Shown here piece after piece: positions 5,858-23,893 of a stretch of DNA of 48,596 bases. Under the pieces are notes generated by a model. That model did not search any database. It worked only from the letters and a program-made list of their open reading frames with translations, and was not told the DNA's origin. Within the stretch, counting starts at the first letter, position 1. Each line of letters starts with the position of its first letter. Position numbers and translations under genes: made by a program. Source of the stretch: Actinomycetes bacterium (GTDB lineage Bacteria; Actinomycetota; Geothermincolia; Geothermincolales; JAHEXQ01); the NCBI GenBank assembly GCA_023252035.1, contig JAHEXQ010000001.1, positions 1 through 48,596 of the forward strand, in the 5' to 3' direction.

Positions 5858-6023
5858 AGTGTTCCATTCCATAAATACACTGGCATTCGAACGCCTATCC
5901 ATCCACGCCGGCTGTGTTCCGCTCCCTCGATGTACTACTGCGAGTACGACATCGGTCGCGCGCCTTGCCGACGCGGCGCCTAGACGCTCTCGGTGCGTCA
6001 CCGTATTTATGGAATGGAACACT
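5858..6023 (+). repeat. 166-nt palindrome-ended element, copy 1 (candidate structured RNA or MITE)
   Basis: It has perfect 21-bp terminal inverted repeats AGTGTTCCATTCCATAAATAC / GTATTTATGGAATGGAACACT. The interior is ~90% identical to the reverse complement of 22396-22558. It fills the murI-MBL intergenic gap. Confidence 0.85.
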
Positions 6024-7609: not shown

Positions 7610-7957
7610 TGGTGGAGGCGGGGGGAGTTGAACCCCCGTCCGAAGCCAAAACGTCGCAGTATGCTACGAGCGTATCCGCCGTTTAGTTTCGCCCGGCCGG
7701 CACCCGGCGGCCAGAACCATCCGAGCTATCCCGGTTAAGATTTCCCTACACCCCCACAGGATTCGGGTTTCGGTAATCCCGCTATACGACGCCCTTTCAT
7801 CAGACGCGGGCATTCTGATGAAGAACGGACCGCTTTAAGCGGCCAGTGCCAATTCGGTGTTGGCGTTTGTTTTTTTCTCCGATTTTTTAACGAGATATCG
7901 GAGAACTCGGCTCGCAACTACGTCCGCTACTAGCCCCGTCGAACCCGTGACGCCCCC
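7610..7957 (-). ncRNA. ssrA: tmRNA (SsrA)
   Basis: The 5' end GGGGGCGTCACGGGTTCGACGGG and the 3' tRNA-like end GGACGGGGGTTCAACTCCCCCCGCCTCCACCA are both present. The internal tag reading frame ends ...GCC AAC ACC GAA TTG GCA CTG GCC GCT TAA (ANTELALAA). It lies directly downstream of smpB. Confidence 0.9.
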
Positions 7958-18191: not shown

Positions 18192-19532
18192 CTATTGCTC
18201 CTCGTCCTTCCAAATCTCCTGGAAAGAGGTGTCTAGGTCCTCCTCGAAGAACTTGGCCTTCTCCCGCCTCTCGCGGAGGGGCGGCCTTCCTTGCCGCGCC
18301 TCTCTCCTCCTCGATAGTACCGCGTTGAGAGCGCGCAATACCACCGAATCGTATAACGTCCCGCGCTCCATGCTCATCTCGTTGATGATGGCCCCGGGGT
18401 CCGCACCGACTCCCGCTTCCTGCGCCAGGTGGTCGTAAGCGCAGACCACGTTGAGGATACGCGCAGCGGTGGGAATGGCCCGGGCCGGTCCCTCCTCCAC
18501 CTCCCGCTGTTCCGCGCTGAGAATGTTGGAAACTCCTTCCAGCCCGGGTATCCCACGCAGAAGTTGCGCGCCCTTGGCGCGATAATCGGGCGCGGCGGCG
18601 CCTTCCACCTTGCCGATGTCGTCCAGGGCCGCAGCGAAGCGCAAGTCGCGTATCTCGTCCTCGGAGACGCCCATCTCGCGCGCCACGTCCAGGGAGAGGC
18701 TCGTCACCCGGGCCGAGTGGCCGTCATCCCCCCAGGCCAGCTCCGTCACGCCGGACACCGCCTGCACGGTCTGCAGCAGCCGGTCGTCCAGCCGCTTGTC
18801 GGTGTTGGATTCCGCCATCACGAGGAAGAGCGGCAGCAGGAACAGGACGAAGTTGAGCCAGGGTATTCTCGGGAAGTAGAGCGCCATCAGGAATCCCGAG
18901 GCCGCGATAGCGGCATAGACCGGGAAGGTCTTCCTGCTCTGGTGCGGCAGCAGGCTCTTCCAGTTCCCCGAGCGCGCCGCCCCCGTCTCCAGAGCCGATG
19001 TGATCATCTCACCCAGATAATAGACCAGGGCCATGACCGTAAAGGCGATGGGGAATATGAGGGCTCTCTGGGTTATCACCGGGTTGTAATAAGGATACTG
19101 TGTGCTGTAGGTGGGAAGGTACAACCTCCACTCCAAGCGGTTGCCGCCCAGGTTGGCTATCAGATGGTAGAAGAGGCCGGCCAGGCCCACCAGGTAGGTG
19201 CGCTGGATGATGTGGTAAAAATCTCCCTTGCTGATACGCTGCATCTTGGTGACGAGCCGCCCGCCCATGCTCCCTATGAAGAATATCCAGAGCACCTCCG
19301 GCAGCGGCCGGATGGCCACGATGCAGAGCATGACGGCCATGCCCAGGCGCATAGGCCTGCCCCAGGGGAACTTGATGCGGAAGGCCTCAGCAAAGGCCAG
19401 GAGGGCCATGAGGCCTATGGTCCGCACGAGGTCCAGGTTCGTGAACTTGATGCGCGTGGCCGCGAAGATGAGCACGGCGGCGCAGATGATGCCCGAGAGG
19501 ACGCGCATGAGAGTGAGTCGTCTATCGTCCAT
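18192..19532 (-). CDS. multi-pass membrane protein with degenerate (probably non-catalytic) HD-GYP-like domain
   Basis: An N-terminal polytopic region is followed by HSARVTSLSLDVAREMG...AALDDIGKV, in which HD has become DD. No HHExxDGxGYP segment is present. The ATG at 19532 follows GGAGGAG and overlaps the upstream stop by 11 nt. Confidence 0.65.
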   Translation of the reverse strand: MDDRRLTLMRVLSGIICAAVLIFAATRIKFTNLDLVRTIGLMALLAFAEAFRIKFPWGRPMRLGMAVMLCIVAIRPLPEVLWIFFIGSMGGRLVTKMQRISKGDFYHIIQRTYLVGLAGLFYHLIANLGGNRLEWRLYLPTYSTQYPYYNPVITQRALIFPIAFTVMALVYYLGEMITSALETGAARSGNWKSLLPHQSRKTFPVYAAIAASGFLMALYFPRIPWLNFVLFLLPLFLVMAESNTDKRLDDRLLQTVQAVSGVTELAWGDDGHSARVTSLSLDVAREMGVSEDEIRDLRFAAALDDIGKVEGAAAPDYRAKGAQLLRGIPGLEGVSNILSAEQREVEEGPARAIPTAARILNVVCAYDHLAQEAGVGADPGAIINEMSMERGTLYDSVVLRALNAVLSRRREARQGRPPLRERREKAKFFEEDLDTSFQEIWKDEEQ

Positions 19533-21177
19533 GGCTCTCCTCCCCGGGTTCGCCCTCGAAATCGGGGCGCGGCGCCTTGGCGTTCTCCCCCGGCGGTTGC
19601 GGCTCTGCGGGTGGAGCCGGTGATACATCCTCCTTCGCCTGCGCCCGCGGCGGAGCTTCCTCTTCCTCGCTCAAGGCTTGGCGCTCAGCGCTCTCGCGCA
19701 TCTGCCGCCGTTCCCGGAGTTCCCGGCGCCTTCTCTCGGTGTTGCTCTCGCGCCGGGTGAGCCGCGTTTTCCGCAAACTCCCGGCCTTCTCCTTCAGGCG
19801 CGGCCCTATGATGGCGATCTCCTCCGGCTCGAGCCCCTCTGCCTCCACCTCGGCGCCAGCCTCGGGAGCAAACACGGCTTGCCGGCGTACCTCCTCCAGT
19901 GCGGCGAGAAAGGCCCCGGTCACGGCTTCATCGTAATGGACGCCCGCGCTCTGCCTTATCTCGGCCACGGCTACCTCGTGGCTCTTCGGACCCCTCCAGG
20001 GCCTCGGGCTGACCATAGCGTCATAGGCATCCGCCAGGGCTATGATACGAGCTCCAAGGGGAATGGTATCCGCGGCCAGGCCGTCGATGTAGCCGCCGCC
20101 GTCGTACTGCTCGTGGTGGTGCTGGATGGACTCGGCTTGTCCCTGCAGGAAATCGATGGCCTCCATGTGCTGTGCGCTCTCCAGCGGGTGCCGCTTCACC
20201 AGTTCGAATTCATCCTCGTCGAGCTGTCCCTTTTTGGTCAGAACCTGCAGCGGCACGGCGGCCTTGCCGATATCATGCAGCAACGCGGTGTAGTAGAGGC
20301 GGCTAACCTCGTAGGCATTCATCCGCAGATGTTTTCCCGTTATGGCGGCGAGGGAAGCTACGCGCTCGGCGTGCCCCTCCAGGTAGGGTTCGCGCTTCTC
20401 CACATACTTGACCAGGGCGCCCACGCCCTGGTCATAGGCCTTGCGAAGCACCAGGTTCCTGCCGCTGAAATACCAGGCCGCGGCGAGCAGGACCAGAAAG
20501 GCGCCCAGCCCGAAAGCTCCCCTGGCCGCCTCGCTCCACCTACCCAGCACCTCCCCGGTCTCCAGGTCCAGGTGAAAAGCGTTCTGGGCGAAGATGATGC
20601 CGGCCGTCAATCCCACCAGCGCATAGACCAGTTGGTTTACGACCATGAGGAGGTTGGCCCGGCGGTAGAAAGCCTGCAGGGGCCGGTTCTTCTCCCAACT
20701 GGTAACGATGGCCACCTGGACGGAGTTAACGACATAGAATACCAGCGTGGCCAGCAGGATCAGCGGGATGGCCTCGAAGCCCTGTCTCAGGGTGAAAAAC
20801 TGGTGGTGGCCGCCCAGTGCGTAGTAGACGAAGGAGGCGGCCGATACCGACAGCGCGTACTGGAGGCCGTTGAAGGCCATGCGCCACGGATCACGCCGGC
20901 TGCCTCCGCGCAGCGAAACGGCTCCGAAGAGGGCGACGAGCGCCGCCGTTATCCCGTTCAAAGCGACGATGGCCCCGATGAGCGGGATGAGCGTGTAGGT
21001 GGTCTTGGTGCCGCCTTCACCCCGGTCTCCCAGGGTTTCGGCCAGTACGGTGATGATGCCGAAAAGCACCAGGGAGAACCATAAGACATGCTGATGGCCA
21101 GCAGTAGCCCGGTAGGCTATCACGCCAACCACGGCCGCCGCCTGGGCGGCCATCAGTGCTTTCAGTTTCCCTTGCAT
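19522..21177 (-). CDS. membrane-anchored HD-GYP domain protein (putative c-di-GMP phosphodiesterase)
   Basis: HAERVASL...ALLHDIGK...RHP...HHHEQYDGGGYIDGL...ALADAYDAM are present after ~7 predicted TM helices, followed by an E/R/A-rich tail. The ATG at 21177 (MQGKLK) lies 5 nt after GGAGG. Confidence 0.8.
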   Translation of the reverse strand: MQGKLKALMAAQAAAVVGVIAYRATAGHQHVLWFSLVLFGIITVLAETLGDRGEGGTKTTYTLIPLIGAIVALNGITAALVALFGAVSLRGGSRRDPWRMAFNGLQYALSVSAASFVYYALGGHHQFFTLRQGFEAIPLILLATLVFYVVNSVQVAIVTSWEKNRPLQAFYRRANLLMVVNQLVYALVGLTAGIIFAQNAFHLDLETGEVLGRWSEAARGAFGLGAFLVLLAAAWYFSGRNLVLRKAYDQGVGALVKYVEKREPYLEGHAERVASLAAITGKHLRMNAYEVSRLYYTALLHDIGKAAVPLQVLTKKGQLDEDEFELVKRHPLESAQHMEAIDFLQGQAESIQHHHEQYDGGGYIDGLAADTIPLGARIIALADAYDAMVSPRPWRGPKSHEVAVAEIRQSAGVHYDEAVTGAFLAALEEVRRQAVFAPEAGAEVEAEGLEPEEIAIIGPRLKEKAGSLRKTRLTRRESNTERRRRELRERRQMRESAERQALSEEEEAPPRAQAKEDVSPAPPAEPQPPGENAKAPRPDFEGEPGEESHGR

Positions 21178-21360
21178 AAGAACCTCCAGGGGGACTGGAT
21201 CACCAGCGAAAGGTCGCACCCTTTCGCACGAGCTGGTCGAGCAGTCTGCTTATCATCTCAACAAACCGTTTCATGTTCCTCCGTACTACGTACCTGTCCC
21301 CGTACACGGGAAAAGCGTACATCTGTACCCGACACCGGGCTTGTTCGCCTTCAGCCTCCC

Positions 21361-21903
21361 TTAACCCTCCGGCTCTATGAGGCCGTAATTGCCGTCCCGG
21401 CGTTTATAGACGACATTGGTATCGCCGGTGTCCGCGTTGATAAAGACGTAAAAAGTGTGTCCCAACAGGTCCATCTGGAGAGCGGCTTCCTCCGGCGTCA
21501 TGGGCTTCAGAGCAAAGCTCTTGCTCCGCACGATCCTGAACTCCTCCTCGGCCTCTTCCTGCGCCGGTGCCGTCGCCTTCCGCGAATTGCCGCCGTGCTG
21601 AGCACGGTCTATGACCTTCGCCTTCATCTGCTTTATGCGCCGCTCCAGTTTATCGGTCACCAGATCGATGGCCTGGTACATATCACTGGCGGATTCCTTG
21701 GCCCGTATGAGTGGCCACGAGGAGTGGATGGTCACCTCGACCACCTGGTTATCCTGTATCTTGGGATTCTTCTCGACGCTCATCACGATCTCGGTCTTGA
21801 TGATACGGTCGAAATAGCGGGTCACCTTGCTTACCTTCTCCACGGCGTGGTCGTGGAGCGGGTCAGTAACATTGATGTTCCTGCCCTTCACTATCATCTG
21901 CAT
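21361..21903 (-). CDS. hpf: ribosome hibernation-promoting factor, long form
   Basis: MQMIVKGRNINVTDPLHDHAVEKVSKVTRYF is the S30AE N-domain. The C-terminal dimerisation domain is FALKPMTPEEAALQMDLLGHTFYVFINADTGDTNVVYKRRDGNYGLIEP. AAGGAG lies 8 nt upstream of the start. Confidence 0.93.
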   Translation of the reverse strand: MQMIVKGRNINVTDPLHDHAVEKVSKVTRYFDRIIKTEIVMSVEKNPKIQDNQVVEVTIHSSWPLIRAKESASDMYQAIDLVTDKLERRIKQMKAKVIDRAQHGGNSRKATAPAQEEAEEEFRIVRSKSFALKPMTPEEAALQMDLLGHTFYVFINADTGDTNVVYKRRDGNYGLIEPEG

Positions 21904-21931
21904 GTATGGACTCCTTTTCCTCCGCTTTGGG

Positions 21932-21966
21932 AAAAGCCCCGAATCCGCCCAAGCGTATTACGGGGC
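21932..21966 (-). terminator. terminator/attenuator-like hairpin 30 nt upstream of the hpf start
   Basis: The minus strand reads GCCCCG-(UAAUA CGC UUGG GCG GAUU)-CGGGGC followed by UUUU. Confidence 0.4.
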
Positions 21967-22128
21967 ACCTTAACATCTTATCTTCCGCCGAAAACCAGCT
22001 AATGCCAATCTCCTGCCTATCTCCTGCGAAAAATCAGCCTAGCATAACGATAACTGGCCTGTCCAGCCGGCACACCTGGCTCCAGGAGCCGCAAACCAAT
22101 GGGCTGTTCTCCTCGCTCCTCCTGTTAT

Positions 22129-22363
22129 GAGGGGGCTCCGGTACCGGCTGACCTGGTCTTTTCCCCCACACTCGCCTGCTGAGCGTTCCGCAGCGGCGGC
22201 CGTGTTACGGGCCCTTCCGCCACTCCAGCGCTTCTCCAGCTTAGGCCGGGCAGGTCTTACCCCTAAGCCGCACTATGCTCACTAACGAGATGTTAGCTTA
22301 CGTGGGTCGTTTAGCCTGCGACTGGCATCGACTTTCAACCACAGACCCGGGCCGGAACCCCTC
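22129..22363 (-). ncRNA. ~235-nt structured leader domain upstream of hpf (candidate raiA-motif-type RNA)
   Basis: 5' GAGGGGUUCCGG (22363-22352) pairs with CCGGAGCCCCCUC (22141-22129) as 12 bp with one bulge. This encloses several nested GC helices and a GCUUAGG/CCUAAGC alternative pairing. The domain starts 6 nt after a TATAAT box and lies between comFC and hpf, where raiA-motif RNAs are reported. Confidence 0.35.
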
Positions 22364-22368
22364 GAAAA

Positions 22369-22374
22369 ATTATA
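22369..22374 (-). promoter_or_regulatory. -10 box (TATAAT) for the hpf leader transcript
   Basis: This is an exact TATAAT on the minus strand. The first purine 6 nt downstream (G22363) is the first base of the leader's closing helix. The -35 is not convincing. Confidence 0.35.
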
Positions 22375-22395
22375 CCATGGAGCGCAGATGGACTT

Positions 22396-22558
22396 AGTGT
22401 CCCTTCCCATAAATACGGTGACGCACCGGGAGCGCCTAGGCGCCGCGCCGGCAAGGCGCGCGACCGAAGTCGTACTCTTAGTACGTCGAGGGAGTGGAAC
22501 ACAGCCGGCGTGGATGGATTGGCGTTCGAATGCCAGCGTATTTATGGGAAGGGACACT
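22396..22558 (-). repeat. 163-nt palindrome-ended element, copy 2 (inverted relative to copy 1)
   Basis: It has perfect 21-bp terminal inverted repeats AGTGTCCCTTCCCATAAATAC / GTATTTATGGGAAGGGACACT. The interior matches copy 1 in reverse orientation, with loop indels and point changes. Confidence 0.85.
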
Positions 22559-22621
22559 TAGTGCCGGGAGTTGTTGATGGACCGTCTGGCGAAGGTGCTC
22601 TACCAGAGTCGCTCGGAGGCC

Positions 22622-22864
22622 TTAACGCAGGTGCTCTACCAGCATGCAGTGCACGAGGATCATGCTTGCTACCTCTTCGCTGGGGACGGAATAGGTCTCC
22701 TCTTTCAGGGACTGCTTGAGATCGTGTACGAGATCCCGGCGCACCGTAGGGTATATGCCTACCCTGGCCAACAGCCTTTCCACAGCGGAGCGGCTCTCCC
22801 CCTTCATGGAATTCGCGGCGAGGGCGTCCAGCGCATCGTAGATATCTCTCTGTGATACTCTCAT
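22622..22864 (-). CDS. small FlgM-like protein (putative anti-sigma factor family)
   Basis: The 80-aa protein has a segment LKQSLKEETYSVPSEEVASMIL that resembles the FlgM C-terminal helix pattern (I..G.Y.VD.E.IA.K.L). Its position between comFC and hpf matches the Bacillus-type order. The call rests on the motif only. Confidence 0.4.
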   Translation of the reverse strand: MRVSQRDIYDALDALAANSMKGESRSAVERLLARVGIYPTVRRDLVHDLKQSLKEETYSVPSEEVASMILVHCMLVEHLR

Positions 22865-23020
22865 CGCTCTTCGTTCCCCACGTTTTTGTCAGCTTTGCGC
22901 TCAATTAATTTATCGTCAGCGGGTAAGGCGACCTGAAGTCCGATTTGATGCCCTGACCAGGTTGACAAAAAGGCCAGACCCTGTTGTTAACCTGGCTCTT
23001 CACCCGGTAGTGGGTCAGTT

Positions 23021-23893
23021 TCAATCCAAAAGCGCCGCGATTTCTTCTAGCGTCCAGACGTGATCTGCTACGCCCGCTTCCATTGCCGGTGTGCGCGGAT
23101 ACGGATTCGCAAGGCTCTTGTGGGGCCGTGCGAAGTTGTAGTGCATGAAGTGAAGGCTGACCGCGCAGGCAAGATTCTCGGCCTTCTTCGAGAACGCATT
23201 GGTTAGACGAGTAAACCGCCGCATACCCATGCGCATTGTTAGATCCTGCCGCTCGACATAGGAAGTCGATATGTGATCGGGGTCCGGCTTGCCCGTGATG
23301 ATCTTTGTCTTAGTGCCCACATAATCGGCTGGAGAATAACGCTTCTGTCCCTCCGGCTCATTCCCATAAAGCTTGTGGAGCATCGCATAATCTATGTTTG
23401 CACCGAAAGCCCTCTCGACAGAGTTCAGATAAGCCCTGTGGCCGTCTGTCGTAAGCTGGACGGGGTTGCGGAGCCGCGAGGCTACCTCGGACACAAAGAG
23501 AGTTGCATCTTCACCATCGCGCTTGCCCACAAGCCAAGAGGGAACCAGCTTAGTGCCAGCATCAAGCGCAACCCAGGTCCAAATATCCCCGTAGCCGAAC
23601 TCGCCAGCGTGTTCTTCGGGAACGTTCTTCGCCTTGGAATAGACGAAGCTCCATATCTCGTCGAATTGAAGACGCTTACAAGGCAGCTCGCGCAGGACTT
23701 TGTCCTGGTATTCGGAGCAGGCCCGGCCAAGATCAACGAGCAGTTTGGTTGCGGTGTTCTTAGCCGCTCCTGTAATGCGCACTGTCGCCCGGATGCTCAT
23801 TCCCTCAGCAAGACACCCGATGATCTGTGCGCGCTTCTCAGTCGACAGCCGGTTCATACTGACCATTATACTTGAGCGGTCTAGCTTCGCCAA
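23021..23893 (-). CDS. IS1-family DDE transposase
   Basis: An N-terminal HTH is present (MNRLSTEKRAQIIGCLAEGMSIRATVRITG). The DDE context reads LQFDEIWSFV, LTTDGHRAY and STSYVERQDLTMRMGMRRFTRLTNAFSKK...HYNFARPH. The stop codon lies inside the left IR. Confidence 0.88.
   Translation of the reverse strand: MAKLDRSSIMVSMNRLSTEKRAQIIGCLAEGMSIRATVRITGAAKNTATKLLVDLGRACSEYQDKVLRELPCKRLQFDEIWSFVYSKAKNVPEEHAGEFGYGDIWTWVALDAGTKLVPSWLVGKRDGEDATLFVSEVASRLRNPVQLTTDGHRAYLNSVERAFGANIDYAMLHKLYGNEPEGQKRYSPADYVGTKTKIITGKPDPDHISTSYVERQDLTMRMGMRRFTRLTNAFSKKAENLACAVSLHFMHYNFARPHKSLANPYPRTPAMEAGVADHVWTLEEIAALLD

Follow-up and report, generated by a model that had tools for sequence, protein, structure and literature searches.

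The locus described here raises the question of what occupies the long noncoding interval upstream of hpf, and whether it belongs to that gene or forms a gene of its own. The interval lies in a 48,596-nt stretch of DNA, hereafter the window, from an Actinomycetes bacterium (GenBank assembly GCA_023252035.1, contig JAHEXQ010000001.1). The host assembly measures 2.34 Mb and is 91.7% complete, and coordinates of features of the raiA/hpf locus refer to the minus strand of the window. An original prediction, made from the sequence of the window, described the ~450 nt (by our count ~459 nt) that precede hpf as a single leader that begins with a closed, pseudoknot-prone domain, possibly a raiA-motif RNA. 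Our analysis shows that the segment 22363–22129 is an ordinary full-length raiA/ModT structured RNA of a known family. It is most likely a gene in its own right and not part of an hpf leader, because hpf has its own conserved promoter and a short leader.

Family membership is established by a covariance-model search. A scan of the whole window with the models of Rfam 15 returned raiA (RF03072) at 22355–22138, scoring 157.6 bits where the gathering score is 101.3 bits, with an E value of 1.3e-39; the match is full length, covering model positions 1–209 of 209. With the additional pairing that flanks the match, the RNA is closed by an extended helix P1 and spans 22363–22129, about 235 nt, with a predicted 5′ end at 22363–22361. 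Searches with the family model found a single copy in the host assembly; of 41 relatives belonging to the same order or class, 39 likewise have a single one, and every match is above the cut-off. The same search of 14 well-known genomes, used as controls, gave no match. The 39 loci (29 order-level and 10 class-level) yield an alignment of 254 columns, 120 of them invariant, and the window sequence departs from the others at just one otherwise invariant column, A22283, where U22295 compensates by converting a C-G pair of P5 to U-A. The suspected raiA-motif RNA between comFC and hpf is borne out by the full-length match and by this conservation. The raiA family and its presence in Actinomycetota are already known. 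By protein similarity, the closest hpf loci are in metagenome-assembled genomes (MAGs) named Actinomycetota, Candidatus Solincola tengchongensis and Candidatus Geothermincola secundus, which belong to the class Candidatus Geothermincolia.

The closing helix of the window RNA reaches beyond the Rfam model. The segment GAGGGGUUCCGG, which starts at 22363, pairs with CCGGAGCCCCCUC (22141–22129) around one bulged C, and the helix also appears in the minimum free energy (MFE) fold. This is the 12-bp pairing with a single bulge that the original prediction had recognized, and it corresponds to P1 of raiA; its 5′ arm begins 5 nt after the upstream TATAAT and not 6 nt after it, as first stated. The helix continues inward through CCGG/CCGG to a total of about 17 bp. 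In the nomenclature of the cryo-electron microscopy study by He et al. 2026 (PMC12968392), which we follow for all structural elements, P1a with its 8-nt extension (GAGGGGUU CCGG C CCGG) occupies 22363–22347 and is paired with a 3′ strand at 22147–22129. A GU bulge (22346–22345) separates it from P1b (CUG, 22344–22342, with CAG, 22150–22148), and a GGU bulge (22153–22151) separates P1b from P1c (UGGUU, 22341–22337, with GACCA, 22158–22154). This three-segment P1 with its GU and GGU bulges agrees with the published definition (PMC12968392) and is invariant in the 39 relatives.

P1a is about 8 bp longer than in the Rfam model, and the extension forms in every order-level relative from differing sequences: GAGGGGUU/AGCCCCCUC in the window, GGAAGGCU/AGGCCUUCC in locus L007 and GUGAGGCU/AGUCUCUCAU in L003 (compared loci are cited by our own numbers where they must be told apart). 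The full P1 duplex has a free energy of −22 to −41 kcal/mol in the order-level relatives. Distal arms pair better with their own partners than with those of other genomes, with a cognate mean of −11.3 versus −7.8 for non-cognate combinations; for the window the values are −12.8 with its own arms and, on average, −7.9 when its 5′ arm is combined with the 3′ arms of other genomes. The comparison with relatives shows, then, that the closing helix is kept. In several of them, including L002, L004, L016, L104, L105 and L107, a U-run follows the 3′ arm of P1 without a gap (GGCCCCUUUUUU in L002, CCCGUCUUUUUU in L016, CCUUUUUUU in L105). P1 and the U-run together would constitute an intrinsic terminator, so that in those genomes the raiA RNA should be a discrete transcript.

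Within P1 the RNA is of the Clostridium acetobutylicum type, in which P2 is absent, P7 is short and P8 has an E-loop. The place of P2 is taken by J1, GAAA (22336–22333). The P3 region (22336–22306) consists of P3a (GUCG/CGAC), an internal loop (AU/UAAA) and P3b (GCC/GGC), and is invariant or nearly so in the 39 relatives; the first base of the asymmetric, A-rich internal loop is U in the window versus G or A in the relatives. The P3b loop, AGUCGCA (22323–22317), pairs with UGCGGCU (22272–22266) to form the 7-bp pseudoknot PK1. The pseudoknot linker between P5 and P6 (22276–22257) comprises the 5′ region of PK2 (AUAG, 22276–22273), the 3′ strand of PK1 and the single-stranded UAGGGGUAA (22265–22257). 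The conserved single-stranded linker (UUAGNNGUAA) is present, reading CUUAGGGGUAAG in the window. P4 is formed by CCAC (22305–22302) and GUGG (22169–22166), as seen in the sequence and in the relatives, and P5 can be mapped onto the published nomenclature. In the P6-P7-P8 domain (22256–22175), P6 is CCUGC/GCAGG, P7 is the short hairpin CCGGC CUAA GCUGG, and P8 is a long stem with an E-loop-type AGUG/GAA motif. The distal stem of P8, GGCGG/CCGCC (22221–22217 with 22199–22195), varies among relatives with compensatory changes. The E-loop core AGUG/GAA is kept and its flanks differ (CUGGAGUGG in the window versus YANUAGUGG in the relatives); 68% of raiA members carry an E-loop in P8. All testable raiA-defining features are present, with the exception of PK2, which is partly canonical only. 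PK2 is defined by two Watson-Crick pairs that join the 5′ region of the linker to the P4-P1c linker; in our mapping onto the published numbering U22275 and A22161 are able to pair, and the adjoining position is A22274·A22162.

This architecture also disposes of part of the folding scheme proposed originally, in which the domain was packed with mutually exclusive GC-rich helices. Two of these helices, GUCG/CGAC and GGCGG/CCGCC, are P3a and the distal stem of P8. The other three, GGCCCGGGUCU/AGACCUGCCCGGCC, GUGG/CCAC and GCUUAGG/CCUAAGC, are not part of the consensus. They were considered as functional alternative folds and rejected; we read them as coincidental because their partner sequences differ in relatives, which have AGUCC in place of AGACC and different P7 loops.

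A promoter-like sequence stands directly before P1. The exact TATAAT at 22374–22369, noted in the original prediction and confirmed here, is preceded by TG at 22377–22376, and the two form an extended −10 element, TGgTATAAT (22377–22369), which we predict to be the raiA promoter from its sequence, its enrichment and its recurrence in relatives. The motif TGnTATAAT occurs 3 times in the window versus 0.32 expected. In order-level relatives a TATAAT-type hexamer ends 12–14 nt before the start of the Rfam model, and this fixed position would place the start of transcription at the first bases of the extended P1. Immediately upstream lies a miniature inverted-repeat transposable element (MITE) of ~166 bp (22557–22392) with 21-nt terminal inverted repeats and TAA flanks. 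It was delimited by alignment with an element at 5858–6023, of which it is a second copy in the opposite orientation.

A second predicted promoter lies between raiA and hpf. Its −35 element, TGGACA (22065–22060), is separated by 18 nt from a TRTG-extended −10 element, TATGCTAGGCT (22046–22036), and transcription would start at about 22029–22027. The 29 order-level loci share the motif TTGGCA, 17–18 nt, TRTGnTA(G/A/C)(G/C/T)CT, and each of the 39 raiA–hpf spacers contains a −10 part of the same type. The sequence TRTGnTAGGCT has a single occurrence in the window versus 0.06 expected. The −10 element lies 132 nt from the hpf ATG, and the distance is identical in L007, L008, L009, L022 and L108. 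From the promoter motif and the fold we predict an hpf 5′ leader of ~125 nt (22029–21904), the equivalent of which in L007, from promoter to hpf, spans 1760–1915. Among the 24 distinct loci that were examined first, the whole raiA–hpf spacer measures 173–508 nt; that of the window has a fold z-score of +0.55, which gives no sign of a large structured spacer.

The short leader contains two hairpins. The first, predicted at 22016–21987 (GGAGAUUGGC AUUA GCUGGUUUUC), is found in the MFE fold, and a GC-rich hairpin occurs at the equivalent place in relatives. The second is the terminator-like hairpin at 21966–21932, composed of GCCCCG (21966–21961), CGGGGC (21941–21936) and UUUU (21935–21932). The original prediction placed such a hairpin with its U-run just before the hpf Shine-Dalgarno sequence (AAGGAG, 21916–21911), and both the sequence and the fold bear this out; 32 nt lie between the end of the stem and the hpf ATG. 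A simple terminator scan misses the hairpin because its loop is long and its run has only four U residues. By a strict scan, a stem and U-run ending 28–35 nt before hpf are present in 19 of the 29 order-level loci, and when a four-U tail is allowed and the sequences are read by eye another five are added, for 24 of 29. Besides these, L018 and L019 have insertions between the hairpin and hpf, and one genus only (L006, L010 and L015) is without a U-run at this place. The 8-bp stem CCCAUACC/GGUAUGGG shows no change in any of the 20 family-f3 sequences, in contrast to its variable loop and flanks; in family f2 and in the window, other stem sequences are built on the same GCCC/GGGC base. The layout is conserved in position across three families. 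An origin as a repeated element was rejected, since five relatives have one such hairpin per genome. As a separate observation, the insertions in L018 (~1655–1865) and L019 (~1900–2036) amount to ~100–210 nt, and that in L018 is palindromic and MITE-like and holds a TATAAT.

Searches for a known or recognizable regulatory device in this leader gave little. All 4227 Rfam families, applied at E≤10 to 21880–22140 and to the L007 spacer, returned chance hits only; such hits, here and in a scan upstream of hpf in L042, include HOTTIP_1, trpB and miRNAs. For an antiterminator to the leader hairpin, inspection by eye offers 4–6-bp GC-rich options, none of them conserved in the alignment fold, and neither a conserved upstream open reading frame (uORF) nor a ligand-pocket-like junction was seen in the hpf leaders. 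A leader peptide starting within the conserved TATGCG was rejected: its ATG lies 1 nt after the −10 element, outside the transcript, and the frame and length of the reading frame differ among loci. In 9 of the 10 class-level relatives (L005, at 1888–2088, L016, L103–L107, L110 and L115) a csp gene preceded by the same promoter motif separates raiA from hpf. No remnant of csp was found in the order-level hpf leaders.

It is tempting to suppose that the ~125-nt hpf leader with its own promoter is an undescribed cis-regulatory attenuator, or that promoter and terminator delimit a small RNA gene, but we put this forward tentatively and hold it to be rather doubtful. In its favor, a single-copy hairpin and U-run recur 28–35 nt before the start codon, and the stem is fixed throughout one family but changes in sequence from family to family. 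A Csp-type cold-shock RNA chaperone might relieve attenuation into hpf, an idea suggested by the fact that csp occupies exactly that place in sister lineages. The conserved hpf leader hairpin with its own promoter, unmatched in Rfam, is the only element of the locus that is possibly new. A conserved hairpin of another sequence, also GC-rich (GCCCGCCCGGGCG...CCCGGGCGGGU and then AUCUUC), was noticed ~38–42 nt upstream of hpf in L041–L043, L056, L058, L061 and L066. Its hosts are other Actinomycetota and Coriobacteriia-type MAGs, and in L042 it has no Rfam match at E≤10. Hairpins placed shortly before hpf may recur across Actinomycetota.

We consider it highly probable that raiA has its own promoter and specifies a discrete, trans-acting RNA, and that hpf is served by a separate promoter and a ~125-nt leader. 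Several observations weigh against this reading. At the −35 position of the raiA promoter the hexamer CTAAGT (22397–22392) matches TTGACA at 2 of 6 positions, and the −10 element of the hpf promoter matches the consensus at 3 of 6; a simple sigma-70 consensus scan of 21300–23100 calls no promoter for either gene. We have kept both calls because of their TG extensions and their conservation across genomes. The end of the MITE falls at about −33 of the raiA promoter, so that all DNA beyond the −35 position belongs to the MITE. There is no U-run after the 3′ arm of P1 in the window (CCCCCUCAUAACAGG), and for that reason the 3′ end of the raiA RNA is undefined here and co-transcription with hpf is possible. 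Although the sole KhpA-type KH gene of the assembly (PF13083) was located at G000:C169:9123–9341 (L116), its partner KhpB, with Jag_N and R3H domains, was not found in this 91.7%-complete assembly. The low bit score of this copy, its A·A position in PK2 and the constant orientation of raiA toward hpf count on the same side, and bear directly on the alternatives.

One alternative is a single hpf leader of ~459 nt in which raiA, as an aptamer-like first domain, regulates hpf in cis. raiA precedes hpf and points the same way in 39 of 39 loci, as a cis element would; P1 without a U-run makes read-through likely in the window; a terminator-like hairpin precedes the hpf Shine-Dalgarno sequence; and Rfam 15 still types RF03072 as 'Cis-reg; riboswitch'. 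A riboswitch leader, however, would have neither promoter nor gene between its aptamer and the sequence it controls, whereas all 39 loci have the conserved promoter motif interposed between raiA and the hairpin, csp separates raiA from hpf in 9 of the 10 class-level relatives, and P1 with its U-run terminates right after raiA in several relatives. The variable length of the spacers (173–508 nt) points in the same direction, as do the reports of trans complementation, of no ligand binding and of no expression platforms (PMC10861870, PMC11706538, PMC5737381). Control in cis from a single long leader is therefore unlikely, and the ~450-nt leader proposed originally is probably wrong. By analogy with the members of the family studied so far, we judge that the raiA RNA is not an hpf riboswitch.

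It could also be argued that the copy in the window is decaying or silenced, the MITE having displaced the upstream promoter DNA and the core having begun to drift. Its bit score is the lowest of the 39 (157.6 versus 164.5–185.6), the MITE ends at about −33, an IS1-type element is nearby, and one pair of PK2, G-C in most relatives, is A·A. Against decay, the score is 56 bits over the cut-off, the A·A is shared by L112 while L109 has G·A, and the −10 element, extended by TG, has no mismatch. The −35 hexamer CTAAGT, by our own reading, would be the same before and after insertion of the MITE, owing to the TAA target duplication. Since the sole deviation at otherwise invariant columns is compensated, we rejected the view of this copy as a strong outlier or pseudogene, and decay or silencing in general seems even less probable than cis control. 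The last alternative, that the helices arise by chance in GC-rich intergenic DNA, draws on the MFE z-score for the single-sequence fold of the raiA region, which at −1.98 makes thermodynamics alone a weak support, and on the three helices of the original scheme that are not conserved. The decisive evidence is the covariance-model match, with its E value of 1.3e-39 over the full model; together with a core that is near-identical in 38 other genomes it has already refuted chance pairing, to which we attach practically no probability.

A scheme for the locus can be proposed on the reading of two separate genes. Transcription of raiA would start at about 22362, at or within 1–2 nt of the first base of the extended P1, from TGgTATAAT, and the RNA would fold into a P1-closed, double-pseudoknotted core. 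It would most likely be trimmed to, and accumulate as, a discrete RNA of ~235 nt, because the long P1 would shield both ends from trimming. By analogy with C. acetobutylicum and C. difficile, the RNA may be abundant and stable, act in trans and influence the stationary-phase switch. hpf would be transcribed mainly from about 22028, with the hairpin at 21966–21932 probably attenuating transcription into the gene. The absence of a U-run after P1 in the window makes it probable that some raiA transcripts extend to the hairpin ending at 21932 or into hpf; a long transcript covering both genes may thus be made and yet not serve as a regulatory leader.

The closest known counterpart is Ca-raiA of C. 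acetobutylicum (Soares et al. 2024, PMC10861870; He et al. 2026, PMC12968392). The two RNAs have in common the P1a/P1b/P1c bulges, the GAAA junction, the P3a/P3b loop, a 7-bp PK1, P4, P5, the UAGGGGUAA linker, P6, a short P7 and an E-loop-type P8, as well as single-copy occurrence, a comFC...hpf neighborhood, and secA and prfB downstream. In contrast to Ca-raiA, the window RNA has a P1a that exceeds the Rfam model by ~8 bp, as it does throughout the host's order, one A·A position in PK2, and no terminator after P1. The raiA family has been described as trans-acting, abundant, single-copy and without expression platforms, and loss of raiA in C. acetobutylicum impairs sporulation and aggregation (PMC10861870). 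The conserved architecture, including P1, and binding of raiA to KhpA and KhpB are described in PMC12968392; neither ligand binding nor an expression platform was found in PMC5737381. The host class Geothermincolia is absent from the main text of the 2024 raiA survey (PMC10861870).

ModT of C. difficile (Lence et al. 2024, PMC11706538) resembles the RNA of the window in having a housekeeping-type promoter, a predicted one in the window, directly before P1. ModT is transcribed from a SigA promoter, has two 3′ isoforms and a very long half-life, and its loss delays entry into stationary phase and alters cyclic di-GMP (c-di-GMP) and sporulation (PMC11706538). Its two alternative 3′ ends parallel the two candidate ends here, the base of P1 and the hairpin ending at 21932. 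The starts, ends, half-life and phenotypes of ModT have been mapped, whereas the RNA of the window is known from its sequence alone. The effect of ModT on c-di-GMP has a possible echo in the two HD-GYP-type genes that follow hpf in the window, though this is an association only. Ns-raiA of Nocardioides sp. (PMC12968392) belongs to the same family and the same phylum, Actinomycetota, but has P2 and a 14-bp P7, neither of which the window RNA possesses.

The hpf leader, for its part, can be set beside two other kinds of element. Like the hairpin at 21966–21932, the raiA-hairpin motif (Weinberg et al. 2017; cited as an Rfam family in PMC8388888) is a conserved hairpin 5′ of raiA/hpf in Actinomycetota; it has no Rfam match to the window or the L007 spacer at E≤10, and any relationship between the two would be conjectural. 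With attenuators based on intrinsic terminators the leader shares the layout of a promoter, a leader of ~100 nt, a GC-rich stem with a U-run, and a Shine-Dalgarno sequence and start codon ~30 nt farther on. It differs from them in that no conserved antiterminator, uORF or ligand-pocket-like junction was found.

The genes around raiA conform to the arrangement expected from other members of the family. hpf (21903–21361) encodes the long form of its protein, with S30AE and S30AE_C domains (Pfam E values 3e-30 and 1.3e-22), and comFC (26234–25437) encodes double zinc ribbon and phosphoribosyltransferase domains. The order comFC–raiA–hpf given in the original prediction is upheld by these Pfam identifications, with the qualification that ~3 kb of other DNA intervenes after comFC: an IS1-type element with passengers, a flgM-like open reading frame and the MITE. 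The flgM-like frame (22864–22622) codes for 80 amino acids (Pfam FlgM, E 6.3e-06) and has homologues at the same position in L022, L023, L024, L017 and L021. A comFC homologue is located upstream of raiA in 18 of the 24 distinct loci of relatives. Downstream of hpf the window has the two HD-GYP-type genes (18192–21219), then secA (18182–15555) and prfB (15340–14429). In L017 and in 20 of the 29 order-level loci, the gene behind hpf is of the membrane HD-GYP type (HD_5); the remaining sequences mostly end soon after hpf. The second HD-GYP paralogue is present in the three loci with long downstream flanks (L023–L025). The shared retention of raiA, hpf and HD-GYP genes across the order is a weak hint that the raiA RNA has a connection with c-di-GMP turnover of the sort reported for ModT, again as an association only. 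Elsewhere in the window, the Rfam scan found a transfer-messenger RNA (7610–7957; 194.9 bits) and three tRNA genes (42–114, 2017–2091 and 2201–2273).

The identification in itself adds little, since raiA is a curated Rfam family with cryo-electron microscopy structures and knockout phenotypes. What the locus contributes is of another kind. raiA proves to be nearly universal, and single-copy, in a poorly studied and uncultured class of actinobacteria, and the longer closing stem, with a promoter exactly at its foot, helps to define the mature RNA. A conserved promoter and a hairpin leader of its own point to a regulation of hpf that is separate from raiA, and annotators of such loci should therefore treat the Rfam typing 'Cis-reg; riboswitch' with caution. 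Leads on the control of ribosome hibernation in these organisms come from the hairpin in the hpf leader and from the csp and HD-GYP neighbors.

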